From Candidatus Schekmanbacteria bacterium RIFCSPLOWO2_02_FULL_38_14 (GTDB taxonomy: Bacteria > Schekmanbacteria > GWA2-38-11), in assembly GCA_001790855.1 (NCBI GenBank), contig MGDH01000018.1:14207-78206 (forward strand): a stretch of DNA of 64,000 nucleotides. Direction: 5' to 3'. Numbering within the stretch: position 1 is the stretch's first letter; every line of letters begins with the position of its first letter. This document shows positions 3,022-56,046 of this stretch, one piece after another. Position numbers and translations under genes: made by a program. The notes beneath the pieces are model-generated. The model saw nothing but the letters and a program-made list of their open reading frames with translations, was not told the origin of the DNA and ran no database searches.

Positions 3022-3127
3022 AATTCTGGCAGAACAGGCGCCTGCCTGCCGGCAGGCAGGTCTCGCCTGTCTGATAGGCAGGGTTTTCTAACCCTGCCAA
3101 ACTAATTTTCAGAAAAAAGGCAAAAGA

Positions 3128-4486
3128 ATGAATCCACAGATATTCAGGGAATATGACATAAGAGGGTTAGTTGATGTTGACTTGACTGAGGATATTGTTA
3201 CAAAAATAGGAGTTGGATTTGGTACATACATGGCAGTATCAGGTAAAAGAAAATTATCTGTTGGCTATGATATCAGGCTGAGTTCAGAGCGTTTTAAGGA
3301 TGCCCTCATCAAAGGGCTCACATCTGCTGGCTGCGATTGCATTAATATCGGAATGGTGCCAAGCCCTGTTCTTTATTTTTCCCTGTTTCATCTTGATGTT
3401 GACGGAGGTGTGATGATAACAGGCAGCCATAACCCTCCTGAGTTTAATGGACTGAAGCTATGCGATAACAAAACATCTCTTTATGGTGAAGAGATTCAGA
3501 GAGTCAGAAAAATCATCGAAGAAGGGAAATTCAGCAAAGGAAATGGAAATATCACTTCAAGAAATATAACTGAAGACTACATAGAGCTTATAAAAAATAA
3601 AATAAAGCTAAGAAGAAAGCTCAGGGTAGTTTTGGATGCAGGAAACGGAACAGCATCTTTAATAGCTCCAAAACTGATAAAAGGAATAGGCTGTGATGTA
3701 ACAGAGCTTTTCTGTGAACCTGATGGAAGATTCCCGAATCACCATCCTGACCCTACAGTTCCAAAATACCTGGAATCGCTCATTGCAACAGTAAAAAAAG
3801 AAAAAGCAGATGTTGGTATTGGGTATGACGGTGACGCTGATAGAATCGGTGTGATTGACGACAGGGGAGAAATAATATGGGGCGACCAGCTTCTTGTCAT
3901 ATTTTCAAGGGAAGTCCTGAAAAAAGGAAAAGCCCCTATTATCTTTGAAGTAAAATGCTCACAGGTGCTCAATGATGACATATTAAAACACGGAGGAATA
4001 CCAATAATGTGGAAGGCAGGGCATTCTCTTTTAAAGAGCAAGATGAAGGAAGAAAAATCTCCTCTTGGAGGTGAGATGAGCGGACATATGTTCTTTGCAG
4101 ATGGCTACTTTGGGTATGATGATGCAATCTATGCCTCATGCAGGCTTCTTGAAATCCTCTCAAATACAGATTTAAGGCTTTCTGAAATACTTAAAGACCT
4201 TCCAAAGATGTATAATACCCCTGAAATCCGTGTTAACTGCCCTGATGAAACAAAGTTCAGTGTTGTTGAAGATGTAAAAAAATATTTCAAGGAAAAATAT
4301 AAGACCATTGACATTGATGGTGTAAGAATAACCTTTGAAAACGGCTGGGGCCTTGTAAGGGCTTCAAACACACAGCCTGTTCTTGTCCTGAGGTTTGAAG
4401 CTGATTCCCAGAAGGCACTGGAAGAAATAAAAAAAATTGTCTTTGACAAACTGGCTCAGTATCCCGGAGTTTCAATCCCTGAATAA
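3128..4486 (+). CDS. phosphomannomutase/phosphoglucomutase (alpha-D-phosphohexomutase family)
   Basis: Active-site loop TGSHNPPEFNGLK, Mg loop GYDGDADR, sugar-binding GEMSGH; 452 aa. Confidence 0.85.
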   Translation: MNPQIFREYDIRGLVDVDLTEDIVTKIGVGFGTYMAVSGKRKLSVGYDIRLSSERFKDALIKGLTSAGCDCINIGMVPSPVLYFSLFHLDVDGGVMITGSHNPPEFNGLKLCDNKTSLYGEEIQRVRKIIEEGKFSKGNGNITSRNITEDYIELIKNKIKLRRKLRVVLDAGNGTASLIAPKLIKGIGCDVTELFCEPDGRFPNHHPDPTVPKYLESLIATVKKEKADVGIGYDGDADRIGVIDDRGEIIWGDQLLVIFSREVLKKGKAPIIFEVKCSQVLNDDILKHGGIPIMWKAGHSLLKSKMKEEKSPLGGEMSGHMFFADGYFGYDDAIYASCRLLEILSNTDLRLSEILKDLPKMYNTPEIRVNCPDETKFSVVEDVKKYFKEKYKTIDIDGVRITFENGWGLVRASNTQPVLVLRFEADSQKALEEIKKIVFDKLAQYPGVSIPE

Positions 4487-4510
4487 ATCTGATTTCTCTT
4501 ATAATTTTTT

Positions 4511-4585
4511 TCAAATTCCCCCCTTACCCCCCTTTTCCCTGCCTGCCGGTAGGCAAGTAAAAAAAAGGGGGATGGGGGGATTAAT
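4511..4585. repeat. composite palindromic element: family B (C6/G6 hairpin) with a family C core (CCTGCCTGCCGGTAGGCAAG) nested in the loop
   Basis: aaattccccccttaccccccttttccctgcctgccggtaggcaagtaaaaaaaagggggatggggggatt; the 108-aa ORF 4437-4763 is produced by this repeat and is not a gene. Confidence 0.6.
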
Positions 4586-4669
4586 TCCAATATTCCTTTG
4601 TATGGCCCTAAAACTTATGAAACTTACAATAATCCTAATCTCTGTAATCATATTAAACATACACAACAA

Positions 4670-7480: not shown

Positions 7481-7572
7481 GTCATTGCGAGAAGCGTTAA
7501 CGACGTGGCAATCTCAAAAATGTCATTGTTATTAAAGAAATTGCCACCTGCCTGCGGTAGGCAGGCAATGAC
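7481..7572. repeat. palindromic element family D (GTCATTGCGAG ... CAGGCAATGAC termini) with a family C core inside
   Basis: gtcattgcgagaagcg...gtggcaatctcaaa...ccacctgcctgcggtaggcaggcaatgac. Related copies at 26227-26275, 29775-29891, 48509-48659 and 56028-56046 (partial). Confidence 0.55.
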
Positions 7573-39501: not shown

Positions 39502-40731
39502 ATGTTTCAAATGGGATTTTTGAAATTAGTCTTTAGAAAATGGCGAATGAACTACAAGGTGTTCTTTTTAATATTAATCATATTTTCTTTTCTGCCATTA
39601 AATATTCATTCTGAGAAGAATACTAATCTTTTCCCTGAAAACCCTCTGGAAGGCTCGAAGATATTTGTGATTAAAGGTTGTGTAAAGTGTCATGCCATTA
39701 AGGGAGAGGGAGGAAATATAGGGGCAGATCTAGGCAAAGTCACCTTTAAAGATACATTGCTTGATATGGCAGGAATTATGTGGAACCATTTTCCGTTTAT
39801 GAGTGAAAAAATGGAGGAGGAGAAGATTGACTGGCCAAAGTTTTTAAGTGGGGAAATGGCAAGTCTAATAGGCTACCTTTATTATATAAATTATTTTGAT
39901 GAGCCAGGCAATACTAAAAAGGGAGAAAATTTATTTTCAGTAAAAGGGTGCGCGCAATGCCATGGCATAGAAAAAAAAGGTGGCAAACCAGGACCAAGTT
40001 TAAGTAAGTTTAAACGTGACTACTCACCAATCTTCATGGCACAAGCTATGTGGAATCATGGTTCTGAAATGGAGGCATCCATGAAGAAATTAGGGATTAA
40101 GAGACCTCAGTTTAATGATAAAGAGATGGCTGACCTATCTGCTTATATTAGAAAAGAAGCAAGAGGGGAAAAGAAGGGATATGGTTTTATGTTGCCTGGA
40201 AATCCAAAAGAGGGGAAACAACTTTTTAACAAAAAAGGATGCATACACTGTCATGCCATTTCAAATGAAGGTGGAAACATAGGGCCAGACCTTGGCAAAA
40301 AGGCAGAAGAGCTGCACAGGAGTCTAAATGAAGTAGCAGGCATTATGTGGAATCACTGGCCTAATATGTATAGAAAAATGATAGAGATGAGAATAGAGGT
40401 TCCAAGTTTTTCAGATAAAGAGATGGCAGACATAATAGCATATCTCTATTTTCTTGGATACTTTGATGAAAAAGGAGATATGAAAAAGGGGTCTATAATT
40501 TTCAATGAGAAGGGGTGTATTAAATGTCATTTTTTTGATGGAAAACAAATGATAGGGCCTGATTTGAGAAAATTATCTAATACTACTTCTTCCATAGAAG
40601 TTGTTACAGAGATGTGGAACCATGCCTCAAAGATGAAAAATAAAATGGCAGAGCTTAAAATCCAATGGCCCAAATTCAAAAAAGGCGAGGTAGCAGACCT
40701 TATGCAATATCTCAGGTCTTTAAAAAAATAA
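39502..40731 (+). CDS. tetra-domain c-type cytochrome (four class-I monoheme repeats, each with CxxCH...GG...MWNH)
   Basis: CVKCH, CAQCH, CIHCH, CIKCH each followed by GEGG/KGG and an MWNH motif ~25 residues later; N-terminal membrane anchor or signal. Confidence 0.75.
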   Translation: MFQMGFLKLVFRKWRMNYKVFFLILIIFSFLPLNIHSEKNTNLFPENPLEGSKIFVIKGCVKCHAIKGEGGNIGADLGKVTFKDTLLDMAGIMWNHFPFMSEKMEEEKIDWPKFLSGEMASLIGYLYYINYFDEPGNTKKGENLFSVKGCAQCHGIEKKGGKPGPSLSKFKRDYSPIFMAQAMWNHGSEMEASMKKLGIKRPQFNDKEMADLSAYIRKEARGEKKGYGFMLPGNPKEGKQLFNKKGCIHCHAISNEGGNIGPDLGKKAEELHRSLNEVAGIMWNHWPNMYRKMIEMRIEVPSFSDKEMADIIAYLYFLGYFDEKGDMKKGSIIFNEKGCIKCHFFDGKQMIGPDLRKLSNTTSSIEVVTEMWNHASKMKNKMAELKIQWPKFKKGEVADLMQYLRSLKK

Positions 40732-40854
40732 CAGGCTGCTTAATGTCATTTCTGCCTGCCTGTCGGCACCTGTCTGCCGCCTGACTGCCGTCAGGCAGGT
40801 CAGGCTGGGACAGGTAAGAGCAGGAATCCAAAAGCAAAGGAGGTTAATAATCTT

Positions 40855-41115
40855 TTGAATCAGCAGAGAGAAGTAATAAAAAATAAATCTGTAAATATTT
40901 TTCAATTACTGATGCTATTTGCTTTCTACTTGTTTGTTGGATCCATAATTGCCTTTGTTGTCAATGGAATTTATAATGCATTGGAAAATAATGATGCTTT
41001 TATGTATTCTATAGTTATAGGAGCAATAGTTATTCCTGTATTTTTGACTTTAACTATTCTGGTTACATTAGTTTTCTGGGTCATCGTGAGAGAAGGCAGG
41101 AAGGATATGAGGTAG
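40855..41115 (+). CDS. small 2-TM membrane protein (possible complex-associated subunit)
   Basis: 86-aa ORF with two hydrophobic helices between the two paralogous cytochrome genes; weak evidence only. Confidence 0.3.
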   Translation: MNQQREVIKNKSVNIFQLLMLFAFYLFVGSIIAFVVNGIYNALENNDAFMYSIVIGAIVIPVFLTLTILVTLVFWVIVREGRKDMR

Positions 41116-41120
41116 AGTTT

Positions 41121-42347
41121 ATGAAGAATCTAAAGAAAATTACCATCTATATGTTTTCAGTTTTTTTGATAGTAGGGTCATTATTAACCGTAGGAATAAA
41201 TGTTGTTTGCAGCACAGAAAAATACCTTTTGCCTGGAGATGCTAAAAAAGGGTGGCAGAGTTTTTTCACCAAAGGGTGCATCAAATGCCATTCTGTTTGG
41301 GGAGAGGGAGGTACAGCCGGTCCTAATCTTGGCATTACACCCTCTAAGCATTTGACTGAAGCAGAGCTTACAGCAGCCATGTGGAACCATGCTCCGGCAA
41401 TGTGGGAGAAAATGTTAGCAAAAGGGATAGATTTTAAAGCCATAAGCCAGGAAGAAATGGCTGATATATTCGCATTTCTCTACTTTATTAGATATATGGA
41501 TGAGCCAGGTAATAAGGAAAATGGAAAAGAGTTGCTGGCCACAAAAAAATGCACTAATTGCCATGCAATTCATGGAAAAGGAGGCAGAGTAGGGCCCGAG
41601 CTGACAAAATGGGGAACATATACTAATCCAATTCTGTGGGCGCAGATGATGTGGAATCATGCACCCCAGATGGAAGAGGAAATGAGGAACAGAGGAATAA
41701 CCTGGCCAATATTTGGTGAAAACGAGATGGTTGATATTATTGTTTATGTAAAGAGTGTCAGTAAATCGGGAGATAAAATTTTTATTTCACCAGGTGACTC
41801 AAAAGACGGTAAAATACTGTTTTCTAAAAAGGGTTGCAGCCATTGCCATTCTACCGAGACAGGTAGCAAAAAGGATGGACCAAATCTTGGAAGGGATTTA
41901 AGAAAAAAAGAATCTTTCCCAAGGACTATTACTCAGGTTGCAGGCCTTATGTGGAACCATTCTCCTGAAATGTGGAAAGAGATGAAAGAAAAGGGAATGA
42001 AGAGGCCAGAGCTCAATCCTCAAGAGATGGCAGATTTAATCGCATATCTTTTTTCTCTCCAATATTTTGATGAGCAAGGAAACAGAGAAAAAGGAGAAAA
42101 GGTATTTAAAGAAAAATATTGCATAAAGTGTCATACAGTGAATGGCAAAGGCGGTCTGAAAGGTCCTGACCTTAAGGAATGGCGCAGGCAGGTTTCGCCA
42201 ATTTCCATGGCGCAAGCTATGTGGAACCATGGTCCTTCAATGTTGGGAGAAATGAAAAAAATGGGCTTTAAATGGCCAAAGTTTGAAGGAAATGAGATAG
42301 TGGATTTGATGGAATATTTAAGAGAACTGGCTAATAAAACACTTTAA
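41121..42347 (+). CDS. tetra-domain c-type cytochrome, paralog of 39502-40731
   Basis: CIKCH, CTNCH, CSHCH, CIKCH with the same four-repeat layout and MWNH motifs; 408 vs 409 aa. Confidence 0.75.
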   Translation: MKNLKKITIYMFSVFLIVGSLLTVGINVVCSTEKYLLPGDAKKGWQSFFTKGCIKCHSVWGEGGTAGPNLGITPSKHLTEAELTAAMWNHAPAMWEKMLAKGIDFKAISQEEMADIFAFLYFIRYMDEPGNKENGKELLATKKCTNCHAIHGKGGRVGPELTKWGTYTNPILWAQMMWNHAPQMEEEMRNRGITWPIFGENEMVDIIVYVKSVSKSGDKIFISPGDSKDGKILFSKKGCSHCHSTETGSKKDGPNLGRDLRKKESFPRTITQVAGLMWNHSPEMWKEMKEKGMKRPELNPQEMADLIAYLFSLQYFDEQGNREKGEKVFKEKYCIKCHTVNGKGGLKGPDLKEWRRQVSPISMAQAMWNHGPSMLGEMKKMGFKWPKFEGNEIVDLMEYLRELANKTL

Positions 42348-44298: not shown

Positions 44299-46203
44299 AT
44301 GAATGAAAAGAAATACAAAGTAGAGATTCCAGATTTAGAATATTACCAGCGTGTAATTAATTGCCAGTATGCCTGTCCAGTTAAAACTGCTGCTGGAAGC
44401 TATGTTACTGCAATTACAGATAGGGAATATGAAAAGGCTTATGATTTTGCAAGAATGCCAAATCCCTTTGTTTATGTCTGTGGAAGGATATGTGACCATC
44501 CATGTGAAACAGCCTGCAGGCGTGGTGCTATTGATGAGCCAATAGCAATATGCGCCCTTAAGAGAACAGCCACTGACCACCATAATTTGAGTTTAGGTCA
44601 TTGGCTAGGCTTGCCTCTTGAAAAGAAAAGAGAGGAAAAGGTAGCTGTTATTGGCGCAGGACCAGCAGGTTTATCAGCAGCCAATGATTTAGCAAGGCTC
44701 GGTTATCAGGTTACTGTTTTTGAAGCATCACCTGTCGCTAGTGGAATGTTATATCTTGGTCTGCCAGGTTATCGCCTGCCAAGAGATATAATCAAATTAG
44801 AGGTTGATTCCATATTAAACCTTGGGGTTGAGCTTAAGACAAATACTCCTTTGGGTGAAGGGTTGAATTTAGAGGATTTAAAGAGGCAAAAATATAAGGC
44901 AATTTTTATTGCTACAGGATGCACAAAAAGCAGGGATTTAAATATAGAAGGAGCTAATCTTGACGGGGTCTTAAAGGGTGTTGATTTTCTCTTAAACATT
45001 AACCTCGGTTATAGGGTTGAACTTGGGAAGAGGGTCATTGTAATTGGTGGTGGAAATGTGGCAATGGATGTGGCTCGTTCAGCTATCAGAAAAGGAACAG
45101 AGCTTGAATCTTTAAGCCCTGAGGAGATGAAAGATGCTTTGGAAAAGGCAAGAAAGGCATTACAGCAATTGGTTGAGAGTGAAGAGGAGAGAGAAAAGGA
45201 GATGCACATTGCAATGGATGTTGCAAGGTTAGCTCTGAGAAAAGGGGCAAAGGATGTGCATTTAGTCTGCCTTGAATCAAGAGAAGAGATGCCTGCCCAT
45301 GCTTGGGAGACAGAAGAAGCATTCGCAGAGGGGATTGTGTTTCATAATAGACTCGGGCCAAAAAGGATTTTAGGAAGAGATGGAAAGGTTACAGGCATTG
45401 AGACCATTAGATGCTCGTCGGTTTTTGATAGTGAGCATAGATTTAATCCAACCTTTATCAAAGGGACAGAAGAATTTATTGAGGCTGATTCAATTATTTT
45501 GGCTATTGGCCAGGCAGCAGATATCTCTTTTTTCAAGAAAGAGGATGGCATTTCAATAACTCGCCAGGGTTTGATAGAAGTTAATCCTGACACCCTCGCA
45601 ACAACAGCAGATGGAATTTATGCAGGTGGAGATATAGCTTTTGGGCCAAGAAATGTTATTGCAGCAATTGCAGATGGACAGAAGGCTGCAAGGTCAATTG
45701 ACTCTTATTTAAGAGGAGAGAGCAAGAAAAGGATTCGGGCAAGAATGGCAGTGATTAAGGATCATAAGATGCATGAAGGATATGAGAGAATCAAAAGGCA
45801 GAAAATGCCTACATTGCCACTTAATAGAAGGATTGGCATTGCTGAGGTAGAATTAGGTTTTTCTGATGAACAGGCAATAGAAGAAGGGAAGCGATGCCTC
45901 AGATGCAATATAAATACAGTCTTTAATGGTAATAAATGTATCCTGTGTGGTGGGTGTGTAGATATATGTCCTGAATATTGCTACAGAATGGCAAAAATTG
46001 AAGAGTTAGAAGAGAATGAGGTTCTTGAAAAGTTAGTTGAAGCAAGATATGGCATTTCTTTTGAAAAATTAAAAAGTGAAAGTGGTTTAAACAGGGCTAT
46101 GATAAAGGATGAAGAGAAATGCATTAGATGCGGCCTATGTGCTGAGCGCTGCCCTACTGGTGCTATTACTATGGAGCTTTTTGAATATAGTGAAAGGATT
46201 TAA
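44299..46203 (+). CDS. NfnB/GltD/SudA-like FAD- and NAD(P)-binding iron-sulfur oxidoreductase with C-terminal 2x[4Fe-4S] ferredoxin domain
   Basis: N-terminal Cys cluster (CQYACP...C), FAD motif VAVIGAGPAGLSAANDLARLGYQVTVFE, second Rossmann VIVIGGGNVAMDVA, C-terminal CILCGGCVDICP and CIRCGLCAERCP. Confidence 0.75.
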   Translation: MNEKKYKVEIPDLEYYQRVINCQYACPVKTAAGSYVTAITDREYEKAYDFARMPNPFVYVCGRICDHPCETACRRGAIDEPIAICALKRTATDHHNLSLGHWLGLPLEKKREEKVAVIGAGPAGLSAANDLARLGYQVTVFEASPVASGMLYLGLPGYRLPRDIIKLEVDSILNLGVELKTNTPLGEGLNLEDLKRQKYKAIFIATGCTKSRDLNIEGANLDGVLKGVDFLLNINLGYRVELGKRVIVIGGGNVAMDVARSAIRKGTELESLSPEEMKDALEKARKALQQLVESEEEREKEMHIAMDVARLALRKGAKDVHLVCLESREEMPAHAWETEEAFAEGIVFHNRLGPKRILGRDGKVTGIETIRCSSVFDSEHRFNPTFIKGTEEFIEADSIILAIGQAADISFFKKEDGISITRQGLIEVNPDTLATTADGIYAGGDIAFGPRNVIAAIADGQKAARSIDSYLRGESKKRIRARMAVIKDHKMHEGYERIKRQKMPTLPLNRRIGIAEVELGFSDEQAIEEGKRCLRCNINTVFNGNKCILCGGCVDICPEYCYRMAKIEELEENEVLEKLVEARYGISFEKLKSESGLNRAMIKDEEKCIRCGLCAERCPTGAITMELFEYSERI

Positions 46204-46210
46204 GCAGAAG

Positions 46211-46345
46211 GGTTCGAGGATTCGAGGGTTCAAATGAAAATCAAAGTTTAAAAATAAAAAATTAAAATTTTGGTATTTGAATTTTGATATTTGATTTTTA
46301 TTTCACTTGAACCCTTGACACCTAGACCCCTTGAACCCTTTTTTG
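46211..46345. repeat. palindromic element, family A variant with GC-rich arms (gggttcgagg...cttgaaccc)
   Basis: gggttcgaggattcgagggttcaaatg...ttcacttgaacccttgacacctagaccccttgaaccc; arms match those of 15531-15668. Confidence 0.55.
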
Positions 46346-46355
46346 AGGTTAACTA

Positions 46356-46829
46356 ATGTCTAAAGACGAAAAAATAGAGGAAATTTCACGTAGATATTTT
46401 TTAGCAGCAGGATGGTCATCTCTTGGCATTATTATGGCTGGCTCAGCCGGTGCAAGCATTCGCTTCTTGCTCCCCAATGTTCTTTTTGAGCCTCCAACTT
46501 CTTTTAGAATTGGAAAGCCTGAAGACTATGCTGATGGTTCAGTAAATTTTTTTCCTGAGAGAAAGATCTTTGTAATTAAAAAAGAGAATGGAATTTTTCA
46601 AACTATCTCTGCAGTATGCACTCATCTACGTTGTATTGTGAAATGGTCAGAGACAAACAAGAATTTTGAGTGCCCCTGCCATGGAAGTATATTTGATGGG
46701 AAAGGCAGAATTATTGGTGGACCTGCTCCAACACCACTTGACTGGTATGAGATAACACTTGGAGAGGATGGTAAATTGTTCATAGATACTATGAAAGTTG
46801 TGGATAGCGGATATTATTTAAAGGTATAA
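46356..46829 (+). CDS. Rieske [2Fe-2S] iron-sulfur subunit of a cytochrome bc-type complex
   Basis: TAT-like RRYFLAAG; CTHLRC...CPCHGS Rieske boxes. Confidence 0.85.
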   Translation: MSKDEKIEEISRRYFLAAGWSSLGIIMAGSAGASIRFLLPNVLFEPPTSFRIGKPEDYADGSVNFFPERKIFVIKKENGIFQTISAVCTHLRCIVKWSETNKNFECPCHGSIFDGKGRIIGGPAPTPLDWYEITLGEDGKLFIDTMKVVDSGYYLKV

Positions 46830-46987
46830 AACATTTCTCCTCATCCTTTATCCTTCTCCCCATAGGGGAGAAGGCAGGTTGAGGGGGAGAAGAAAAACAT
46901 TCAACCCCAGAAGGGGTTTCCCACAGGAAATTGTGGGAGAGAATAAGAGGGACGACAGAGACGTCGTTCCCTACATGATAGGATAAT

Positions 46988-48472
46988 ATGGGGAATATAT
47001 TAAGCAAGTGGACTGAAAGAATTACACAAAACAGAATCTGGAAATCAATTTTCAGACATGGCTATCCTGATACAGAGCTTAATCAATCCCTTGTCATGTA
47101 TACCAATCTTTTTCTTCATATTCAACCTGTAAAGGTTCATAAAAATGTTTTAAGACCATCATATACCTTAAGCCTTGGTTTGATCTCTTTTATACTATTT
47201 CTTGTCCTTGTAATAACAGGGATATATTTAATGTTCTATTATGTCCCTTCAGTTGACAGGGCTTACAATGATATGAAGGAGCTTCAATTTGTTGTCTCCT
47301 TTGGCATATTTTTGAGAAACCTGCACCGATGGTCAGCTCATGGAATGGTGGCTGCAGTATTTTTACATATGTGCAGGGTTTTCTATACGGCTTCTTATAA
47401 ACCTCCAAGAGAATTTAACTGGGTCTTAGGAGTTATACTTTTAATAGTGACATTTGGTTTAAGTTTTACAGGCTATCTTCTTCCCTGGGACCAGCTTGCT
47501 TTCTGGGCAATTACAGTGGGTACAAGCATTGCCAGCTATGCACCAATTATTGGGCAGAAACTACGCTATTTTCTGTTAGGTGGGAATATTGTTGGGCAGA
47601 ATGCTCTTTTGCGGTTTTACGTTCTCCACTGCGTTGTTCTGCCATCAGTTGCTGCTGTCTTAATAGGAATACATTTCTGGCGGATAAGAAAGGATGGAGG
47701 GTTATCAAAGCCTGCAGAAAAATTAAAACAAGAAGAAAAGTTTGAAGAGCTGCAGGAAGAAGGGCTTTCCCCAAAAGGAACAAGTAAGACTTATGGTTTA
47801 ATGGAACTTGTAAAAGGTGCTACTATTCCTGTAGAACAGGAGCCCGAGAATGAGATAATGTCATGGCCACATTTGATCTTTAGAGAGTTCCTTGTCGCCA
47901 TAGTTGTTTTAGTAGTGCTTATTGCTATTTCCTTATTTTTTAATGCACCTCTTGAGGAGCTTGCAAATCCTTCAGAGCCTCCGAATCCAGCAAAGGCTCC
48001 ATGGTATTTCTTAGGACTTCAGGAGCTTGTATCTTATTCAGCCTTTATAGGAGGTGTAATTACACCTTTTCTTGTTGTTTTTGCGCTCCTGATGGCAATA
48101 CCTTATATAGATTACAGAGCAGAAGATGTGGGGATATGGTTTTCCTCTAAGAAGGGTCGTTTAATAGCATTAATTACAGCAACCCTGACATTAATAAGTA
48201 TTCCTGTCTTGATTTTTCTTAATATGAAATACGGGATTAGAGTTTTCTACCCTGATGCTCCTTCAATTCTTGTGGATTTGATAAATCCTGGAACAATTCT
48301 GATTGGAGTTACAGCAGTTATCTCAATTATTATAGGGGTCCGCACTAAGTCATGGAGGTTAGCTGCCATGATGATATTTACCTCCTTTGTAACTGGTTTT
48401 ATTGTGTTGACTGTTATTGGAACATTATTCAGGGGTCCTAACTGGGAGTTTGTTTTCCCATGGAAAGGATAA
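46988..48472 (+). CDS. cytochrome b (fused b6 + subunit-IV-like, 494 aa) of bc-type complex
   Basis: Conserved cytochrome b N-terminus ([12 protein letters not shown] ... [10 protein letters not shown]) and C-terminal PEWY-region equivalent ([10 protein letters not shown]); additional C-terminal TM helices. Confidence 0.85.
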
Positions 48473-48508
48473 AAAAATATATAGGAGTCTGTCAGAGAAC
48501 CCTTTTTT

Positions 48509-48659
48509 GTCATTGCGAGCGACTCCCTCGATATTGCTCGGGACAGGCTCCGGGAGCGTGGCAATCTCAAATCCCCCTATATCCCCCTTTTCCCTGCCTG
48601 CCGGTAGGCAAGTAAAGGGGGAGAAAAGAGGGATTGCTTTGGATTCGCCTCGCAATGAC
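48509..48659. repeat. nested palindromic element ~150 nt: family D termini, then GCAATCTC/GAGGGATTGC, then family B C-runs, then family C core
   Basis: gtcattgcgagcgactccc...gtggcaatctcaaatccccctatatcccccttttccctgcctgccggtaggcaagtaaagggggagaaaagagggattgctttggattcgcctcgcaatgac. Confidence 0.6.
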
Positions 48660-48713
48660 AAGAAAACTCATATTATTTAGAATTTCGAATTTAGGATTTT
48701 AGATTTTAAATAC

Positions 48714-49808
48714 ATGGTTAAATATTTTACATTTTTTAGTATTATTCTCCTGGTCTTTTTTTCTCTTGCCATCTTTAAGGATTATGATAGAGAGTGGAAG
48801 GATTTCCAGAAGAGGTTCTACGAGATTGAATCAGAGAGAGGAAAAAACGCTGAAGAGAAAAAAGTGATAAGAAATACTCCTTTGAGAATAAAACAGATAG
48901 TGTTAGAGGATTTGAATAGAGTTGATAGGTGCACAACCTGCCATCTCGGAATGGAATATGAGAAAAAGTCTTACAAAAAGAATCCATATAAGTCTCATCC
49001 CGACCCAACAATGCATCCCTTTGATCAATTTCCCTTTGATAGATTTGGATGCACCATCTGCCATGAAGGGCAGGGAAGAGCTACTACAAAGGATGATGCC
49101 CATGGTGATGTGGATTTCTGGGATAAGACCATGCTAAGGGGTATTTATCTGCAAGCCTCATGTCTAAAATGTCATGATGACCCTGACCTTAAGGGTGCTG
49201 AGATTGCAATGAAAGGGAAAAAACTTTTTGAGGAAAATGACTGCTATGAGTGTCATAAAGTAGGAGATAAAGGAGAAAGTGTAGGACCTGAGCTTACAAA
49301 GGAAGGATTAAAGACAAAACACCATTTTGATTTTACCCGTGTAAAGGGCAAGCACACTATTGCTAACTGGCAATTCGAGCATCTAAAAAATCCGGAAGCA
49401 GTTGTTCCTGATTCAGTGATGCCAAATTTGGAACTCAGTGATGAAGATGCAAGAGCCTTGACTATATATCTCTTAAGCCTTACTGATGAAAAGGTGCCAG
49501 AAGAATACATAGCGTCTCTAAAAAGAGGTCCTATCCTTGCATTAAGTAGAAAAGTTACAAAGCCTGAGATGAGTCCAGGTGAAAAGCTTTATATAGAGAT
49601 GAACTGCTATTACTGCCATAAGATAAAAGGGGAAGGAGGTGATGGAGCACCTGATTTAACTGGAGTTGGCGCAAGGCATGATGAAGATTGGCTTATAAAA
49701 CATTTTGACACTCCGCGGTCAATAAGTCCTCATTCTTTTATGCCTGACTATAAACTTACACCCGAGGAGATAAAGGCTCTGACAGATTTTATGTTGACTT
49801 TGAAATAG
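48714..49808 (+). CDS. pentaheme c-type cytochrome associated with the Rieske/cyt b genes (C-terminal class-I monoheme domain)
   Basis: N-terminal TM anchor; CTTCH, CTICH, CLKCH, CYECH, CYYCH; C-terminal CYYCHKIKGEGGDGAPDL...FMPDY typical class-I cytochrome c. Confidence 0.75.
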   Translation: MVKYFTFFSIILLVFFSLAIFKDYDREWKDFQKRFYEIESERGKNAEEKKVIRNTPLRIKQIVLEDLNRVDRCTTCHLGMEYEKKSYKKNPYKSHPDPTMHPFDQFPFDRFGCTICHEGQGRATTKDDAHGDVDFWDKTMLRGIYLQASCLKCHDDPDLKGAEIAMKGKKLFEENDCYECHKVGDKGESVGPELTKEGLKTKHHFDFTRVKGKHTIANWQFEHLKNPEAVVPDSVMPNLELSDEDARALTIYLLSLTDEKVPEEYIASLKRGPILALSRKVTKPEMSPGEKLYIEMNCYYCHKIKGEGGDGAPDLTGVGARHDEDWLIKHFDTPRSISPHSFMPDYKLTPEEIKALTDFMLTLK

Positions 49809-49840
49809 CTATGAGACAAAGGTTTTCATAAAACAATCAA

Positions 49841-50000
49841 GCCCAGAAGGGCTTTTCCACAGTTTTATGTGGGAGAGCCTTTTTAGGCTCGATAGCGAAG
49901 AAAAAAATAAGGAGGTGATGAGACAAGCTACATAGTAAGGGAAAGAGTTTAGATTTAAATTCTGTTAGCTACCGGATATATTTAAGAAAAAGGAGGAACT
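49841..50000 (+). promoter_or_regulatory. conserved leader/promoter module (copy 1): GCCC-AGAA-GGGC hairpin, CCACAG-TTTTAT-GTGGGAG hairpin, GAGCC-TTTTT-AGGCTC hairpin, A-rich tract, TTTAGATTTAAATTCTGTTAGCTACCGGATATATTTAAG, AGGAGG RBS
   Basis: Near-identical ~140-nt block recurs at 53010-53149 upstream of the next gene; hairpins and a TTGAAT/TTTAAA-17nt-ATATAT promoter-like spacing seen in sequence. Confidence 0.45.
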
Positions 50001-52790
50001 ATGATTGAAGAAGTATTTTTGATACTGAAAAGAAAATGGTTTATATGTGCATTGGCTTTTCTTTTTGCCATTTCAGCATCCTATGTTTTTGAGAAAGAAG
50101 CCAGTGCAGCAAAAACTTATAACATAGTGGTTAAGATAAAGTCAAATAAAGCCACTAACAGAACAGGCGTAGCGGTAGAGGTCACAGGAGGAGATTTAAC
50201 AACACCCAAGACTGCTACAACGAAAAAAACAGGTATTGTAAAGTTTACAAAACTTGCTAAAGGAACTTACACTGTTACTCCTGCAAAGGAAGGCTATACC
50301 TTTGACCCTGAATCAAAGCCTGTTACATTTGCAACAAGGAGAACAGTAAATGTTGTTTTTAAGTCAACAGAGGTTGTAATTCCTGTTACTGAAGAGGCTA
50401 TAACTCTGTCAACATCTGCAAACGGGACTCACTTTGCTGCGGGTGAGAAACCAATAATCACCATTTCTCTGCCCGACCTGTCCAGCCGCAGTGACTATTC
50501 GCAGCTACGCCTGGTGGTTTATGGTCCACAGGAAACGACCAAGACTAAAACAGCGGTGAATCTGCTCAATGCGTCCACTGACCGTTCCTTAGCTAACACG
50601 GGCCCGCATCACTACATTGACCTCGTTACAGACACCAATGTTCAGCTCAATGATAATATTCTGACCTATACGCTCCAGCCAATCACAGATGAAGAAGCAG
50701 GGACATACACAGCAAGTTTGTGGGCTGTTTTGAAAGATGACCCTTCTGTGCAGTCGTTCCCGCTTGCTGATTTCCAGATTGGAACAGCTACTGCTGAGAC
50801 GCAAATAGTAGAGAGGGAAAATTGTTCTGTCTGCCATAAGGGTGCTGATAGCGGGAAATATTACTTCCATCACATAGATCCTCGTACCGCCGGTTCATCT
50901 GGATACCCATCAATTGACTCGTGGGCAGTGAGAACGTGCAAGAGCTGCCATAACACAGATGGCTATGCAGCATACACTGATCCCGCTAATCCCTCTGCCA
51001 CTGATGGCTCTAATAAAATTCCGGATCCGATTGTAAAGCGTGTACATGGTGTTCATATGGGAGAGGAGTTAAAGAACGCGCTCAACACTGACGCGACGAC
51101 AGGTATTTTCAAAAACTACACAAGTGTGGTATTTCCTGCAAATGTCAAGAACTGCACTATGTGTCACGTGGATGATAAATGGAAGACCACACCTTCACGT
51201 CTTGCTTGTGGCGCCTGCCATGATAATATCTGGTTTGGTGATCCGGCAGCCCTTCCTTCAGGACAAGAGGCACATCCTGGTTTACAACAGGATAGCGATA
51301 CCGGATGCTCTACCTGCCACCCTGCAGATGGTTCATGGACCAAGGGTTCGGCACCTGCACCCATTTCAACGGTTCACAAGGTTGATTCGCCAGCTTACAA
51401 GTATACTGTAGAGATTAGCCTAAGCGCACCGGCAAATGAGACTCACTATGTTGCGGGCGAGGCGCCTCAGGTAACAATAACAATCAAAGATGCTACCACT
51501 GGTGCCACAATTGACCCGAACACGCTAACAGAGACCGCCTTCAGCCGTGCCTCTCTCTACGTCTCCGGCCCGCGTGAAAATACAAAACCTGTGCTTACCA
51601 CCTCGGCCAAGGGCCTTGGAGCCGTCCGTGCTTTGGCGACGAACAGCAAGGATGGACCCTGGGATCTGTCAGGCGACCCTACCTTTATCATTGGCATTGA
51701 CGGTACCTCCCGCACGGTAACGGCTGCGGCAAGTAATTTCGCAAATCCGGCAGCTGCGACCCAGGCAGAGGTCATTACATGGCTGAAAAAGGCGCTTCCT
51801 GATGGCATTGGCGATGTGGCGACAGTCTCTGCGTCTGGCACAACAAAAGTCACGATTAAAAGCAATACCAGAGGCTCGACATCCAAGGTCGAGATCTTTG
51901 CAAGTTCAGTTGCAACGGCTATGGGGTGGACCGTTGGTGCGAAAACCCCTACACCTCGTTCCTATGCCAGCAATGACTTCCGCGTCCGCAAAGATTCTTT
52001 TGATGAGGATCCGAAGGTGAGTCGTTCCACCACTGCAGTTACGTACCAGTTAGACGATGTTGCCGGTCTGACCTCAGGCACCTATACTGCTTTTGCCCAG
52101 ATGAGTCCGACATCTGGTTTTGGCGGCTCGGCGGTGGTCAATTTCCAAGTGGGTGGGGCTACAGAAGAAAAGAAGGTTGCTACAAACTGTACCAATTGCC
52201 ATGGTGATACAACAATGCACAGCACCTCCTTATCAGTGCCATTCAATCCAGACATCTGCAAGAACTGCCACGATTACAATCGTGAGGGGACTGGATATGG
52301 TTGGGCCGGCGCTCCCCCGACCGGAACGAACGGGACCTCAACGAGCGGCTGGAGCGGTTTTGGTGCCAAGCCCTTATCAAGCAGAATCCACGGTGTTCAC
52401 CGCGGTCGTTATCTGGAGCATCCTGAGGATGTAAAACCACTGTATAGGCTCGTAAGCGGGGTTGCCACGTATTGGCCTGAATACGATTTCTCTGAAGTGA
52501 TTTTCCCTCAGGATATAAGAAACTGCACCAAGTGTCACAGCGCCGATACGACCGGGACTTGGAAGACAGAACCATCTCGGTTAGCCTGTCTTGCCTGCCA
52601 CGACAACGATGAGGCAACTACCCACGGTAATCTGATGACGTATGATACGACACCTACAGATCCATGGAGCGGTGATGAGATAGAGACATGTGTTGTGTGT
52701 CATGGTTCTGGTAGGGACTTTTCTCCTGACAAGGTGCACAATATCTCGAGTCCCTATAAGCCACCGTATCTACGAGAGCCTGCAGAGTAA
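50001..52790 (+). CDS. large secreted decaheme c-type cytochrome (929 aa), mosaic composition
   Basis: Signal/anchor N-terminus, beta-sandwich N-domain. Ten CxxCH sites: CSVCH, CKSCH, CTMCH, CGACH, CSTCH, CTNCH, CKNCH, CTKCH, CLACH, CVVCH. Internal duplicated module (CxxCH...WKT.PSRLAC.ACHDN occurs twice). Bases ~50420-52790 are ~55% GC vs ~33% elsewhere. Confidence 0.8.
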   Translation: MIEEVFLILKRKWFICALAFLFAISASYVFEKEASAAKTYNIVVKIKSNKATNRTGVAVEVTGGDLTTPKTATTKKTGIVKFTKLAKGTYTVTPAKEGYTFDPESKPVTFATRRTVNVVFKSTEVVIPVTEEAITLSTSANGTHFAAGEKPIITISLPDLSSRSDYSQLRLVVYGPQETTKTKTAVNLLNASTDRSLANTGPHHYIDLVTDTNVQLNDNILTYTLQPITDEEAGTYTASLWAVLKDDPSVQSFPLADFQIGTATAETQIVERENCSVCHKGADSGKYYFHHIDPRTAGSSGYPSIDSWAVRTCKSCHNTDGYAAYTDPANPSATDGSNKIPDPIVKRVHGVHMGEELKNALNTDATTGIFKNYTSVVFPANVKNCTMCHVDDKWKTTPSRLACGACHDNIWFGDPAALPSGQEAHPGLQQDSDTGCSTCHPADGSWTKGSAPAPISTVHKVDSPAYKYTVEISLSAPANETHYVAGEAPQVTITIKDATTGATIDPNTLTETAFSRASLYVSGPRENTKPVLTTSAKGLGAVRALATNSKDGPWDLSGDPTFIIGIDGTSRTVTAAASNFANPAAATQAEVITWLKKALPDGIGDVATVSASGTTKVTIKSNTRGSTSKVEIFASSVATAMGWTVGAKTPTPRSYASNDFRVRKDSFDEDPKVSRSTTAVTYQLDDVAGLTSGTYTAFAQMSPTSGFGGSAVVNFQVGGATEEKKVATNCTNCHGDTTMHSTSLSVPFNPDICKNCHDYNREGTGYGWAGAPPTGTNGTSTSGWSGFGAKPLSSRIHGVHRGRYLEHPEDVKPLYRLVSGVATYWPEYDFSEVIFPQDIRNCTKCHSADTTGTWKTEPSRLACLACHDNDEATTHGNLMTYDTTPTDPWSGDEIETCVVCHGSGRDFSPDKVHNISSPYKPPYLREPAE

Positions 52791-52811
52791 ATAAAGCAAG
52801 GTGGATTCGTT

Positions 52812-52856
52812 AACAAGCCTATTCCCGATGGGGGGGGGTAGGCTTGTTATTTTATC
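52812..52856 (+). terminator. rho-independent terminator after the decaheme gene (aacaagcct...aggcttgtt + T-run)
   Basis: 9-bp stem, G-run loop, followed by attttat. Confidence 0.5.
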
Positions 52857-53009
52857 AAATATTTCTAATTAGCCATATGAGATATTATAGGAGGAAGAGA
52901 TAAAGGTTCTGATTAAATAGAGGTTGACTTTGAAATAGGTATAGGCTAAAAGTTTTTGCAAAATAATCGGCCCCACAGAAGGGGCCTCCCCTGCCTGCGG
53001 TAGGCAGGC

Positions 53010-53149
53010 ACAGTTTTATGTGGGAGCGCCTTTCAAGGCTCGATATAGAAAAGAAAAAAATGGAAAGGGGTGATGCAATAGAATAGATAAAAACTGGAGA
53101 AGGTTAGATTTGAATTCTGTTAGCTACCGAATATATTTAAGGAGGATAT
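53010..53149 (+). promoter_or_regulatory. conserved leader/promoter module (copy 2), paralogous to 49841-50000
   Basis: cacagttttatgtgggagcgcctttcaaggctcgata...ttagatttgaattctgttagctaccgaatatatttaaggagg atg; a family-C palindrome is inserted just upstream (52988-53011). Confidence 0.45.
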
Positions 53150-54679
53150 ATGAAGAGAAATTTATTTTTGACGACAATTTTCGTAGGAGTGTTTATCTCC
53201 TCGATTCTTTCCTTTTCCTATGCCACTGCTAAGGGGAAACCAGGAAAGAAGCCAACGGTTATAAGCATAACCCCGAAAACAGGAGCACAAGGGGAACCCC
53301 TTGATGTAACTATAAAAGGAAAGAATTTTGTTGACACACCTACTGTTAGTTTAGGCGCAGGGATAACTGTGAATGGAGTTGAGTTTGTCTCAGCGACAAA
53401 GTTAACTGCAAACATCACTATTGCCTCAGATGCTAAGATAGGACCAAAACCTGTAACTGTTACTAATCCTGATGGGAAAAAAAGCCAGGCAAAGAAAATT
53501 TTCAAGGTTAAGAAAAGCACATTACCTCAGGCTGATATAATTGCTAAAAAGGTAACAGATGAACCAGGTGAGGCTGATTGGGCAAAAATATCTGGTTCAT
53601 TAATCCAGACAACAGGCAACCCAGCAACTGGAGGACATGGTGCTCTCGGTGAAGAGAATCTCGTTGCAGTAAAGCTTCAGGCATCTCATGACAGCACAAA
53701 TATCTTCATGAGATTTGAATGGGATGACTCAACCCAGAATAACACCCATGAGGTCTGGACATATAGTGCAAGCAGTAGCACATGGTCTAAAGCTGGCAAT
53801 GAGGACAGAATTCTTATTGCATGGCCAATTACAGACGTTGCTGGCAGAGAGGGAAAAACTTTTCAGGAGATTGGATGTGCAATGCTCTGCCACCTGAAGG
53901 ATGCAAATGACCCAACTAAAACTAAGATTGTGCCTAACACCACTGACGCAGTCAATGATTGTTCAGTTTGCCATCCAAATTCTTCAGGTAAAGATACAAC
54001 CTTTGTCCATGTATTACCTACATCAGCTCAAACTTGTATTAGCTGCCATGCTGATAGGGAGATTGAAGAGATTGCTGATATGGGTTCACCTTCTGGTGGT
54101 GCCTTTGACATCTGGCACTGGAAAGCTGGAAGAAGCGATGGTATAGGACTTGCTGAGGACCAGGAAGCATCTGACGGCAAACTTCGAACAAATGATGGTG
54201 CAGGGCTTACAAGCAATAACGATGGTCCTGCTGGATTCACGGACAGGCCAAAATATATCTGGACTGCTGCTTCAGGTAAAGGAGCTTCTCCTGTAACAGA
54301 GATAATAAAGAATAGCGAGATCGCATCCCTTAAGGCTTCAAATTACCTTGCTGAGATAAATGCTACTGATGGGAAATATTATCTTAGCAATGGAACAACT
54401 GAAGAAGTTCTAGGGGATGGTGCGCAAGTGAGGAGAAGAATCCTTAAGGATGGAACCAATATTACAGAGCCTGGCAATGGAGATATCAAGGCATCAAGCG
54501 GCTATTTAGACGGAAAATGGACAGTAGTACTTAAGAGAAAACTCAATACTACTGACACTAAAGACTATGTGTTCAAAACAGGTGAAACTGATATAAACTA
54601 CTTTGGATTTGCTGTCACTGACAACAGCGGGAACAGCCATAAAGCAAAGGCTTTGCTGAAATTGAGGTTTGGGCAGTAA
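53150..54679 (+). CDS. secreted IPT/TIG-domain protein with c-type heme motifs (one CX3CH plus two CxxCH)
   Basis: Signal peptide. N-terminal IPT/TIG-like Ig domain (VISITPKTGAQGEPLDVTIKGKNF). Heme motifs GCAMLCH (verified on DNA: tgt gca atg ctc tgc cac), CSVCH, CISCH. Confidence 0.65.
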   Translation: MKRNLFLTTIFVGVFISSILSFSYATAKGKPGKKPTVISITPKTGAQGEPLDVTIKGKNFVDTPTVSLGAGITVNGVEFVSATKLTANITIASDAKIGPKPVTVTNPDGKKSQAKKIFKVKKSTLPQADIIAKKVTDEPGEADWAKISGSLIQTTGNPATGGHGALGEENLVAVKLQASHDSTNIFMRFEWDDSTQNNTHEVWTYSASSSTWSKAGNEDRILIAWPITDVAGREGKTFQEIGCAMLCHLKDANDPTKTKIVPNTTDAVNDCSVCHPNSSGKDTTFVHVLPTSAQTCISCHADREIEEIADMGSPSGGAFDIWHWKAGRSDGIGLAEDQEASDGKLRTNDGAGLTSNNDGPAGFTDRPKYIWTAASGKGASPVTEIIKNSEIASLKASNYLAEINATDGKYYLSNGTTEEVLGDGAQVRRRILKDGTNITEPGNGDIKASSGYLDGKWTVVLKRKLNTTDTKDYVFKTGETDINYFGFAVTDNSGNSHKAKALLKLRFGQ

Positions 54680-54876
54680 GAACAATCAACTGTGAGAGAG
54701 CCTTTCCCTGCCTACTGCAGGCAGGCTCGATAAATATTTTCTGGATTAAAGCCGTCAGGGAAAAATTCTCTGACGGCTTTAATATTTGCAATGAAAAATA
54801 AATCTGATATATAAAGTAAAATTTTTAAATCTTGTAGGAAAGACTTTTAGACTCGATGAATATTTTTTGATTAAAC

Positions 54877-55917: not shown

Positions 55918-56046
55918 ACCGAGAATCTCAAATCCCCCTCTATTCCCCTTTTCCCTGCCTGCCGGCAGGCAAGTAATGGGGGAGAAAAGAGAGATTGCTT
56001 TGTCGCCTGCCTGCGGTAGGCAGGCTTTGCTCCTCGCAATGACATT
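55918..56046. repeat. composite palindromic element (family B C-runs + two family C cores + family D right terminus)
   Basis: gaatctcaaatccccctctattccccttttccctgcctgccggcaggcaagtaatgggggagaaaagagagattgctttgtcgcctgcctgcggtaggcaggctttgctcctcgcaatgac; ORF 55885-56127 is produced by it. Confidence 0.6.

Follow-up and report, generated by a model that had tools for sequence, protein, structure and literature searches.

The window, a 64,000-nt stretch of a Candidatus Schekmanbacteria contig, carries a Rieske/cytochrome b operon whose distal subunit, c364, is a 364-aa multihaem c-type cytochrome. Two further genes follow on the same strand: that of an MtrC/OmcA-like multihaem cytochrome of 929 aa, and then that of a 509-aa haem protein (EB509) which combines TIG and EB_dh domains (Table 1); as stated in the initial annotation, their products are unrelated. 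The 929-aa gene is chimeric: a low-GC3 N-terminal part, comprising a signal and a prealbumin-like module and reaching to ~50400, is followed by a GC3-rich body (GC3 of 0.25 versus 0.52), and the same N-terminal module is joined to an unrelated body in the relative L014. The terminator-like hairpin behind this gene is kept behind the orthologous gene in L098, and the stretch 3' of the EB_dh gene is conserved behind EB_dh in L016 and L017.

Table 1. Features of the distal part of the Rieske/cytochrome b operon, in window positions
Feature	Position	Strand	Basis or detail
Third REP-like unit (lacking the last hairpin), between Rieske and cytochrome b genes	46900..46954	+	nhmmer E=7e-14
c364, 364-aa multihaem c-type cytochrome	48714..49808	+	Pfam Cytochrom_C, FixO, Cytochrome_CBB3
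REP-like unit, copy A	49835..49897	+	nhmmer E=5.8e-20
Unique leader, copy A	49898..50000	+	leader HMM E=6e-28
MtrC/OmcA-like multihaem cytochrome, 929 aa	50001..52790	+	Pfam
Intrinsic-terminator-like hairpin after 929-aa gene	52811..52855	+	16-bp stem, then TTTTAT
Dead c364-tail remnant (EEIKVLIK*RLTLK*), first part of copy B	52894..52938	+	36/45 identical to 49764-49808
REP-like unit, copy B, split by palindrome insert	52965..53046	+	nhmmer E=2.3e-9
Unique leader, copy B	53047..53149	+	leader HMM E=4e-24
TIG + EB_dh haem protein gene, 509 aa	53150..54679	+	Pfam; 2 CXXCH motifs; ethylbenzene-dehydrogenase-gamma-like
Degenerate REP unit with palindrome insert and terminator-like hairpin (54745-54783)	54686..54783	+	nhmmer E=0.02

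Upstream of both distal genes lies a collinear repeat of ~240 bases composed of a gene tail and a spacer (copy A, 49764-50003; copy B, 52894-53152), for which BLAST aligned 49764-49986 with 52894-53141 (E=2.8e-29). The locus had originally been described as two near-identical leaders of ~140 bp. A shared repeat is indeed present, but over that shorter interval the copies are identical in 114 of 150 aligned columns (76%), and the repeat reaches ~95 nt further upstream, into the final 45 nt of the c364 ORF, where copy A begins (49764-49808). Identity between the copies is mosaic, amounting to 89% in the hairpin block, 92% in the 3' block, 67% in the middle and 53% in the spacer. For the 32-nt block GATTTRAATTCTGTTAGCTACCGRATATATTT there are exactly two occurrences, versus none expected from shuffles, and CACAGNNNNNTGTGGGAG is present at 46922, 49858 and 53009; the third copy reported upstream of cytochrome b was recovered as a partial one (46894-46941, 81% over 48 nt, BLAST E=1.6e-7). 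The spacing given as AGGAGG-N(5-7)-ATG is in fact AGGAGG-N4-ATG in both copies. Because the layout is identical across independent assemblies, six of them covering both copies and four further ones copy A alone, it is not an assembly artefact.

The three hairpins constitute one ~60-nt REP-like dispersed extragenic unit and not a feature of the leader. In copy A they are GCCCAGAAGGGC (49841-49852), CCACAG..TGTGG (49857-49873) and GAGCC..GGCTC (49875-49890), with a single long hairpin as the alternative fold; copy B is interrupted by a 19-nt palindrome, CCTGCCTGCGGTAGGCAGG (52990-53008), of the itself dispersed family D16, and its second hairpin, GCGCC...GGCTC, has lost one pair. An nhmmer search of the 64-kb window found three clear copies and a weak one, all in the bc operon and all on the + strand. 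Further units occupy at least seven sites in L014 and at least five in L017, including spacers beside NrfD, rotamase and unknown genes, and comprise minus-strand copies in L014 (1680-1753, 11160-11196 and 20194-20298) and a tandem array in L017 (1879-2199). That relatives have the unit at many further intergenic positions and in either orientation contradicts the earlier view of three conserved hairpins belonging to the leader. The initial annotation had also noted that copies at unrelated sites would indicate a mere repeat family: such dispersal applies to the hairpin part, with the unique leader confined to positions upstream of two gene types. Across ten REP-like copies the stems are kept, with 90.6% of cells paired versus 25-50% in slid controls, and the unit has a covariation score of 0.206 (versus 0.142), a level that 2 of 500 shuffles reached, with four pairs changed on both sides; in L010 one of the three hairpins is without its loop.

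The remainder of each spacer, a purine-rich unique leader of ~110 nt, behaves differently from the hairpin unit: the leader HMM matches eight sites only, each directly upstream of a multihaem cytochrome or EB_dh gene, and gives no match at the third REP-like unit, where the unique leader is absent. Copy A is ordered as an A-tract, an extended SD-like block, TAAGGAGGTGATG (49908-49920), a variable middle, a conserved block (49947-49986) containing the invariant core AATTCTGTTAGCTACC (49958-49973), and the RBS AAGGAGG (49990-49996). The corresponding elements of copy B are the SD-like block AAAGGGGTGATG (53064-53075), the conserved block (53102-53141) with its core (53113-53128), and the RBS AAGGAGG (53139-53145). 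The core AAYTCTGTTAGCTACC is invariant over 13 consecutive positions in six lineages, in an alignment whose middle segments are 25-50% alike between leader types; pairwise identity of the middle is 50% between copies A and B, 91% between copy A and L017, 87% between copy A and L014, and 76% between copy B and L016. Both the portability of the module and its conservation in related genomes, the latter a check proposed with the original description, are borne out by the relatives, where the leader is kept and precedes either EB_dh (L016, L017) or a multihaem cytochrome (L010, L014, L098, L099); the window has both. An integron attC cassette is not indicated: the core holds GTTAGCT, one mismatch from GTTRRRY, and reading of the leader sequence disclosed no inverse core (RYYYAAC).

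Comparison with relatives is the source of the structure of the module, of the slot that it borders and of the steps by which its two copies were joined. In L016 a 239-nt spacer is all that separates c364 from EB_dh, no cytochrome gene intervening, and copy B matches this arrangement over its full length (E=5e-58); L010, L014, L098 and L099 have c364, the leader and a multihaem cytochrome, and in the distant relative L013 the operon ends at c364. L016 and L014 each carry a single leader copy, and the contigs of L010, L098 and L099 end before a second one could show. Because the window has both layouts of the relatives in series, copy B is read from sequence as a recombination scar. Its first 45 nt match the tail of c364 and contain a premature in-frame stop with no ORF upstream, the intact counterpart being found in L016. 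The post-gene sequence of L098 matches the window only up to ~52904, and a junction with microhomology lies at ~52895-52905; which way the joining went, and by what mechanism, is deduced from a few short contigs. Nucleotide identity of c364 is 84-89% between lineages and 97-99% within the L010/L098/L099 group. Copies A and B are alleles that have drifted apart and did not arise by a fresh duplication. The gene-tail remnant and the recombination junction within the repeat had been overlooked in the initial annotation.

Promoter-like hexamers with 9 of 12 matching positions occur in both leaders, as TTTAAA-17-TATATT in copy A (49954-49982) and TTGAAT-16-TATATT in copy B (53110-53137). In the scan, each is the sole promoter-like site of its spacer, at the homologous position in both copies; the scan as a whole returned no excess over shuffles (33 sites versus 28.3 +/- 5.7 expected). 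These forms correct the sigma70-like TTGAAT-17nt-ATATAT arrangement proposed earlier. The -10 hexamer is kept in L010, L098 and L099, reads TATCTT in L014 and TATTTC in L017, and is lost in L016 through a 3-nt deletion, and a start ~7 nt past the -10 would, in copy B and L016, land within the conserved Shine-Dalgarno sequence. A sigma70 reading of the hexamers is therefore possible but weak. EB509 requires a start signal of its own, because a strong terminator separates the 929-aa gene from copy B, and the ~125 extra nt that lie between conserved block and RBS in L017 fit a promoter rather than an SD-sequestering structure. A promoter spacer as highly conserved as this one would be unusual and would require a binding protein. 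A promoter at the 3' block would also leave the conservation of the upstream SD-like block unexplained.

Taken as a whole, the locus is probably best explained by a composite intergenic module, a recombinational joining and expression signals in the leader. The module consists of the last 45 nt of c364, a REP-like unit and an unstructured ~110-nt leader with a strong RBS, and it forms the fixed left border of a variable slot that ends the Rieske/cytochrome b operon in this Candidatus Schekmanbacteria lineage; the slot holds an EB_dh haem protein in some relatives and an MtrC-like multihaem cytochrome in others. A fragment of one allelic type, comprising the c364 tail, leader and EB_dh, appears to have recombined in just past the terminator of the cytochrome gene at microhomology, leaving two diverged leaders in series and a dead gene-tail remnant. 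REPs stabilise mRNA segments upstream of them, and we infer for the REP hairpins here at most a generic transcript-end or mRNA-stabilising role. The best reading of the leader is a shared expression module, formed by an internal promoter/operator and an RBS, that would supply expression signals to whichever gene comes next. These signals most likely include an internal promoter of approximate form TTTAAA/TTGAAT-16/17-TATATT, with the core AAYTCTGTTAGCTACC in its spacer as a putative protein-binding site, and leader homology may in addition permit cassette exchange through recombination.

The main competing account, which retains a lesser but real chance of being correct, dispenses with a promoter and lets the module act on read-through operon mRNA, giving the distal gene an expression level of its own. 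REP hairpins would keep 3' exonucleases off the c364 segment that precedes them, endonucleases would enter at the A-rich single-stranded tract, and the extended SD-like block AAGGAGGUGAUG, ~80 nt before the start codon, would hold a 30S subunit and block 5'-to-3' decay in the manner of STAB-SD. All six lineages keep this block, which agrees with the canonical anti-SD complement at 12 of 13 positions; it lies 2 nt from its AUG/GUG, too close for efficient initiation, and the mini-ORFs after it, of 1 to 10 codons, are not conserved. The leader RNA is unstructured, with the true SD mostly unpaired and the REP hairpins immediately upstream. However, with the 16-bp-stem terminator and its T-run before copy B, read-through into EB509 should be low, the invariant core AAYTCTGTTAGCTACC is left unexplained, and the documented STAB-SD cases come from Firmicutes with RNase J. 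The STAB-SD of Bacillus thuringiensis cryIIIA, as referred to in PMC3997798 (Agaisse & Lereclus 1996, ref 106 therein), resembles the present case in its conserved SD-like sequence within an untranslated leader, here TAAGGAGGTGATG at 81 nt before the ATG, with the stabilising role drawn by analogy and the host belonging to another phylum. It is improbable that the duplication is a neutral recombination by-product whose blocks look conserved through recent shared ancestry or gene conversion. The organisms compared are indeed all closely related (c364 identity between lineages of 84-89%) and the mosaic leader types show frequent recombination; yet 13 core positions are invariant in six lineages and both gene contexts where the middle is 25-50% alike between leader types, and the core outlasts indels on its flanks, among them the insertion of 125 nt in L017.

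The original suggestion of a cis-regulatory RNA structure, in the form of a riboswitch, attenuator or protein-binding leader co-regulating the distal haem-protein genes, is very unlikely. Whole spacers do fold better than shuffles (z of -3.1, -2.9 and -4.6), but the gain is due to dispersed elements, namely the REP unit and inserted palindromes, and the unique leader stays at shuffled level (z of +1.4, -0.65, -0.2, +2.6 and -1.8). In the RNAalifold prediction the most conserved pair of blocks, GGAGGUGAU and GUUAGCUACC, forms a helix with only two substitutions, both A-to-G and both keeping the pairs; the consensus for the unique leader reaches -4.8 kcal/mol with no compensatory pairs and pair counts equal to those of shuffles, a comparison of low power given six independent sequences from close relatives, and 22-32% of shuffled partners do as well as the -6.7 kcal/mol duplex of blocks 2 and 4. 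An Rfam cmscan of 46000-54000 (E<=1) returned sub-threshold chance matches to eukaryotic miRNA/snoRNA models only, the distance from core to SD varies from ~10 to ~150 nt, and even the hairpin unit has dispensed with one loop in L010. A further proposal makes the core the operator of an XRE-HTH/cupin regulator encoded at 585-1196 (minus strand), with HTH_3 and Cupin_2 domains: the 13-mer AATTCTGTTAGCT recurs exactly at 1272-1284 (-), 76 nt upstream of the start of the regulator gene, and with at most one mismatch the window holds four matches versus 0.30 expected. This assignment is extremely unlikely, as L100, recovered from the metagenome that also gave L014, has an orthologous regulator (75% aa identity) with no such motif upstream, and L014 does keep the leader core; in addition, the site has no convincing dyad symmetry and there is one extra site only.

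An extension of the shared expression module has a small chance of being true: the leader may be a lineage-specific 'docking' module that combines a shared expression signal with recombination homology for swapping terminal electron-transfer cassettes where the Rieske/cytochrome b operon ends, the core AAYTCTGTTAGCTACC being a regulator site. The cassettes would comprise MtrC-like multihaem cytochromes, whose bodies can be exchanged, together with EB_dh haem proteins, and a newly docked one would come at once under the same control. Independently of this extension, the locus illustrates how a respiratory operon of an uncultured phylum gains and exchanges distal haem-protein modules behind a conserved leader, with leader recombination stacking or swapping them, which is useful to annotators of extracellular-electron-transfer or bc-complex clusters in metagenome-assembled genomes. 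The feature itself is of an ordinary kind and introduces no new class of mechanism; the cassette swapping is mildly interesting. A caution for annotation is that conspicuous conserved hairpins 5' of genes can be dispersed REP-like repeats and not regulatory RNAs.

Several known systems resemble parts of the locus. Like the REP/BIME elements of E. coli and Pseudomonas, the hairpin unit is an imperfect palindromic extragenic sequence of ~60 nt that recurs across many spacers, with tandem arrays and either orientation seen in relatives, carries compensatory stem changes and lies at the 3' ends of genes inside operons; unlike them, it has an unrelated sequence, is built of three small hairpins into which a second palindrome can be inserted, and is limited in the 64-kb window to 3-4 copies within a single operon. 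A second parallel is with MITE-like repeats, among them the Correia elements (CREE) of Neisseria, that bring promoters or processing sites next to unrelated genes; the repeat described here likewise lies directly upstream of unrelated genes and may add promoter-like hexamers. In contrast to such elements, it showed neither terminal inverted repeats nor a target-site duplication, and the promoter-like unique leader is not dispersed: it occupies one chromosomal slot, with the second copy obtained via segmental recombination that included a gene tail. The closest parallel in layout is offered by promoter capture and segmental-duplication scars in mosaic operons, with which the locus shares collinear copies, a truncated gene fragment, simpler layouts in relatives and microhomology; it differs in that its copies, with segment identities of 50-92%, are diverged alleles and not a recent in-situ duplication, which therefore points to exchange between related lineages.

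The window, which comes from Candidatus Schekmanbacteria MAGs of Rifle groundwater, carries the repeat among the last genes of a respiratory operon (see table), and the three proteins around it are identical to OGL50251-OGL50253 and sibling entries. The genes behind the two copies had been called unrelated haem-protein genes, and correctly so, as the 929-aa multihaem cytochrome (MHC) and the 509-aa ethylbenzene-dehydrogenase-gamma-like (EB_dh) protein share similarity at the CXXCH level only. The repeated stretch is itself real and far above chance: copies A and B, which precede these two genes, align with E=2.8e-29 (BLAST), and one 32-nt block occurs exactly twice in the window, where none is expected. 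The two-copy arrangement is base-for-base the same in six independent assemblies, and four others cover copy A only. The near-identity described in the initial annotation, however, was overstated: over the interval that it delimited the copies are 76% identical, and their similarity is mosaic: the hairpin block reaches 89% and the 3' block 92%, against 67% and 53% elsewhere. The repeat also begins ~95 nt further upstream than annotated, within the coding sequence of c364, the 364-aa multihaem cytochrome gene whose end, GAGGAGATAAAGGCTCTGACAGATTTTATGTTGACTTTGAAATAG, recurs in copy B as GAAGAGATAAAGGTTCTGATTAAATAGAGGTTGACTTTGAAATAG (36/45 identical, no gaps); this remnant has a premature stop and no ORF ahead of it. 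Taken as a whole, the feature is best read as a recombination-duplicated intergenic module that contains a REP-like repeat and probably serves expression, and it belongs to known kinds of element.

Positions of the features in window coordinates, unless a contig is named
Feature	Position	Length	Remark
c554-like cytochrome		190 aa	Operon gene 1 in listed order (Pfam)
NAD(P)-oxidoreductase/Fe-S protein		634 aa	Operon gene 2 (Pfam)
Rieske		157 aa	Operon gene 3 (Pfam)
Cytochrome b		494 aa	Operon gene 4 (Pfam)
c364, multihaem c-type cytochrome	48714-49808	364 aa	Operon gene 5 (Pfam)
MtrC/OmcA-like multihaem cytochrome	50001-52790	929 aa	Operon gene 6 (Pfam)
TIG+EB_dh haem protein (EB509)	53150-54679	509 aa	Operon gene 7 (Pfam)
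Copies A and B, aligned part	49764-49986; 52894-53141
c364-tail remnant	52894-52938		In copy B
Inserted palindrome	52990-53008	19 nt	In copy B; member of another dispersed family
REP-like unit	46900-46954; 49835-49897; 52976-53046		Unit HMM
Stretch with the SD-like block	49908-49926; 53064-53081; L010 about 2388-2405
Terminator	52811-52855		16-bp stem and T-run
Family D4	4508-4586; 48563-48641; 55924-56002		Dispersed
Family D5	14160; 15989; 23535; 26920		Dispersed; C6/G6 palindromes
Family D16	7541-7566; 52984-53009; 56000-56025		Dispersed
Exact 13-mer AATTCTGTTAGCT	1272-1284 (-)		Same as leader core
XRE-HTH + cupin regulator gene	585-1196 (-)
Families D1-D3, D6, D14	39670-42300		Internal repeats of c-type cytochrome domains
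Genes with the N-terminal module	L014 11414-13735; 17236-19578
Leader insertion	L017 148-284	~125 nt	Between conserved block and EB_dh RBS

Together the three small hairpins make up a single unit of ~60 nt, a further weak copy of which follows the EB_dh gene. In two contigs from relatives, L014 and L017, the same HMM located it at no fewer than seven and five sites respectively, on both strands, in tandem arrays and adjoining unrelated genes. Across ten copies, 90.6% of the pair cells in the stems are paired, and in four pairs both sides have changed. Such pairing and dispersal are typical of REP-like elements, which the unit resembles as a dispersed hairpin unit with stems kept across those copies. 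What had been described as three conserved hairpins of the leader is thus one dispersed element occurring at many unrelated sites, and in the related contig L010 one of the three has lost its loop. The palindrome CCTGCCTGCGGTAGGCAGG may sit within or beside the unit. Several further dispersed palindromic families (D4, D5, D16) fill the spacers of the genome; the cytochrome b-c364 spacer measures 241 nt in the window versus 49 nt in L010, owing to palindromic-repeat insertion in the window.

Downstream of the REP-like unit lies a unique leader of ~110 nt, running from CTCGATA to the start codon. It comprises an A-tract, then a Shine-Dalgarno-like block of extended length, (A/T)AAGGAGGTGATG, ~80 nt ahead of the start, then a variable middle and a conserved block. 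The core of the conserved block, AAYTCTGTTAGCTACC, also written AATTCTGTTAGCTACC, shows no variation across the six lineages; after it come an AT-rich stretch and AAGGAGGA-N3-ATG. In A and B alike, 4 nt separate the SD from the ATG, not the 5-7 nt first reported. A leader HMM matched eight sites, all directly upstream of cytochrome or EB_dh genes and none elsewhere. The proposal of a portable leader is upheld by this placement before MHC or EB_dh genes, and the leader is conserved in related genomes; that the duplicate is a neutral recombination scar appears less likely. In every leader an ATG or GTG comes no more than 2 nt after the SD-like block and opens a very short ORF. L010, L098 and L099 have ATG-TAG, copy B and L016 encode MQ*, copy A and L017 encode MRQAT*, and the ORF of L014 has 10 codons. 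Coincidence may account for this, or else start-stop or mini-ORF behaviour; an upstream mini-ORF was rejected, since neither length (1-10 codons) nor sequence is conserved and a mere 2 nt lie between SD and AUG.

A structured RNA, the initial annotation's cis-regulatory option, is also among the less likely explanations. Whole-spacer folding gave z-scores of -2.9 to -4.6 because REP-like units and palindromes are present; the unique leader gave +1.4, -0.65, -0.2, +2.6 and -1.8, with a true SD that is mostly unpaired in per-sequence folding. RNAalifold on six independent leader versions returned no compensatory pairs, pair counting across the leader was negative for structure, the duplex between the two conserved blocks was no better than with shuffled partners, and an Rfam scan of 46-54 kb of the window found nothing relevant. 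The unique leader is unstructured as RNA, and a regulatory RNA structure is not borne out. We favour, with clear weaknesses, an internal promoter that would hold a protein-binding site, the core, within its spacer, together with the RBS. Each spacer has a single promoter-like site, at a homologous position (TTTAAA-17-TATATT in A, TTGAAT-16-TATATT in B), and the core-to-RBS distance varies from ~10 to 150 nt among leaders, which suits a DNA-level element. A strong terminator lies between the 929-aa gene and copy B, so EB509 needs its own start signal, and its transcription would begin within the copy B leader; this, too, favours the promoter. The sigma70-like reading first offered is possible but weak: L016 and L017 have not retained the -10 hexamer, transcription starting 7 nt past the -10 would truncate the SD of copy B, and the promoter scan as a whole is not enriched. 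The strongest alternative to the promoter is a module acting at the mRNA level, in which REP hairpins would act as 3' stabilisers beside a STAB-SD-like 5' stabiliser, a precedent for which is cited in PMC3997798. Readings of the core as a sigma54, ECF, FNR/CRP, IHF, dif or attC site were compared by eye only, and none fits. The L017 insertion carries an extended -10-like TGGTATATT that lies in a small hairpin and could act as a substitute promoter.

The exact 13-mer near the window's start lies 76 nt upstream of the XRE-cupin regulator gene, with a direct repeat, CTGTTAG/CTGTAAG, after it. The leader core as operator of this regulator was rejected, as the 13-mer is not kept upstream of the orthologue on contig L100.

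Exact protein look-up retrieved contigs of relatives that bear homologues of c364 or EB_dh, and these yielded six independent leader versions. In L016 (c364 84% identical to the window in nucleotides), a 239-nt spacer leads to the EB_dh gene with no cytochrome between; L010, L098 and L099 (87-89%) have the leader and then the 929-aa cytochrome orthologue. L014 (86%) has the leader before a 773-aa cytochrome that matches the 929-aa protein in its first ~121-129 residues only, and the next gene is a rotamase, not EB_dh. In L017, whose contig lacks c364, the leader precedes EB_dh, and in L013 (Vicinamibacterales; 57% aa) c364 is the last gene of the operon. A c364-alignment search of the genome contig collection gave one locus, that of L013; the metagenome collection gave 80 loci, all at most 48% identical and none from Schekmanbacteria, which were left out of the comparisons. 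A pattern scan for the conserved leader block had no matches in either collection, from both of which the lineage is apparently absent; L014 (JGI 3300010938) contains the pattern despite the lack of exact matches in the metagenome collection. Given these varied layouts, the slot after c364 is variable, with the leader as its constant left border, and such a cassette-swapping slot is the most interesting aspect of the locus.

The window has two slot occupants in series. Copy B aligns end to end with the L016 spacer region, including the intact c364 tail of L016 (E=5e-58). Middle-segment identities are 91% between copy A and L017, 87% between copy A and L014, 76% between copy B and L016, and only 50% between A and B; by segment, each copy is closer to a leader from another contig than to its partner, and which gene comes next does not predict the type of leader. 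The L098 cytochrome gene has the same terminator after it as in the window, and the sequence beyond matches to about 52904 and then diverges, near a GA(G/A)GA..ATAAAGG common to the window and the c364 tail. A c364-tail remnant sought after the L098 gene scored at null level. In the simplest history, recombination between diverged alleles would have placed a c364-tail/leader/EB_dh fragment just past the cytochrome gene terminator. A Logan contig (SRR3989338, L007) matches window 3040-4561 and 48567-50722, joining a phosphoglucomutase gene directly to c364 within a D4 repeat; either the assembly is chimeric at the repeat, or recombination between repeats has deleted 44 kb in this variant.

The 929-aa gene is chimeric in composition: its first ~400 nt, encoding a signal peptide and a prealbumin/CarboxypepD_reg-like domain, have a GC3 of 0.25, resembling neighbouring genes, and the haem-rich body has 0.52; the L098 orthologue has a like contrast. 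In L014 the N-terminal module (~70% aa identity) is joined to a cytochrome body of unrelated sequence, and another gene on that contig bears the module as well, which suggests that cytochrome bodies are swapped behind a conserved leader and N-terminal module. A TIG domain forms the N-terminal part of the EB_dh-family protein, whose EB_dh region contains two CXXCH motifs (DCSVCH and TCISCH), so the protein may bind haem c besides the family-typical haem b. Upstream of the operon, the D1-D3, D6 and D14 repeats lie in two adjacent cytochrome c genes of ~400 aa.
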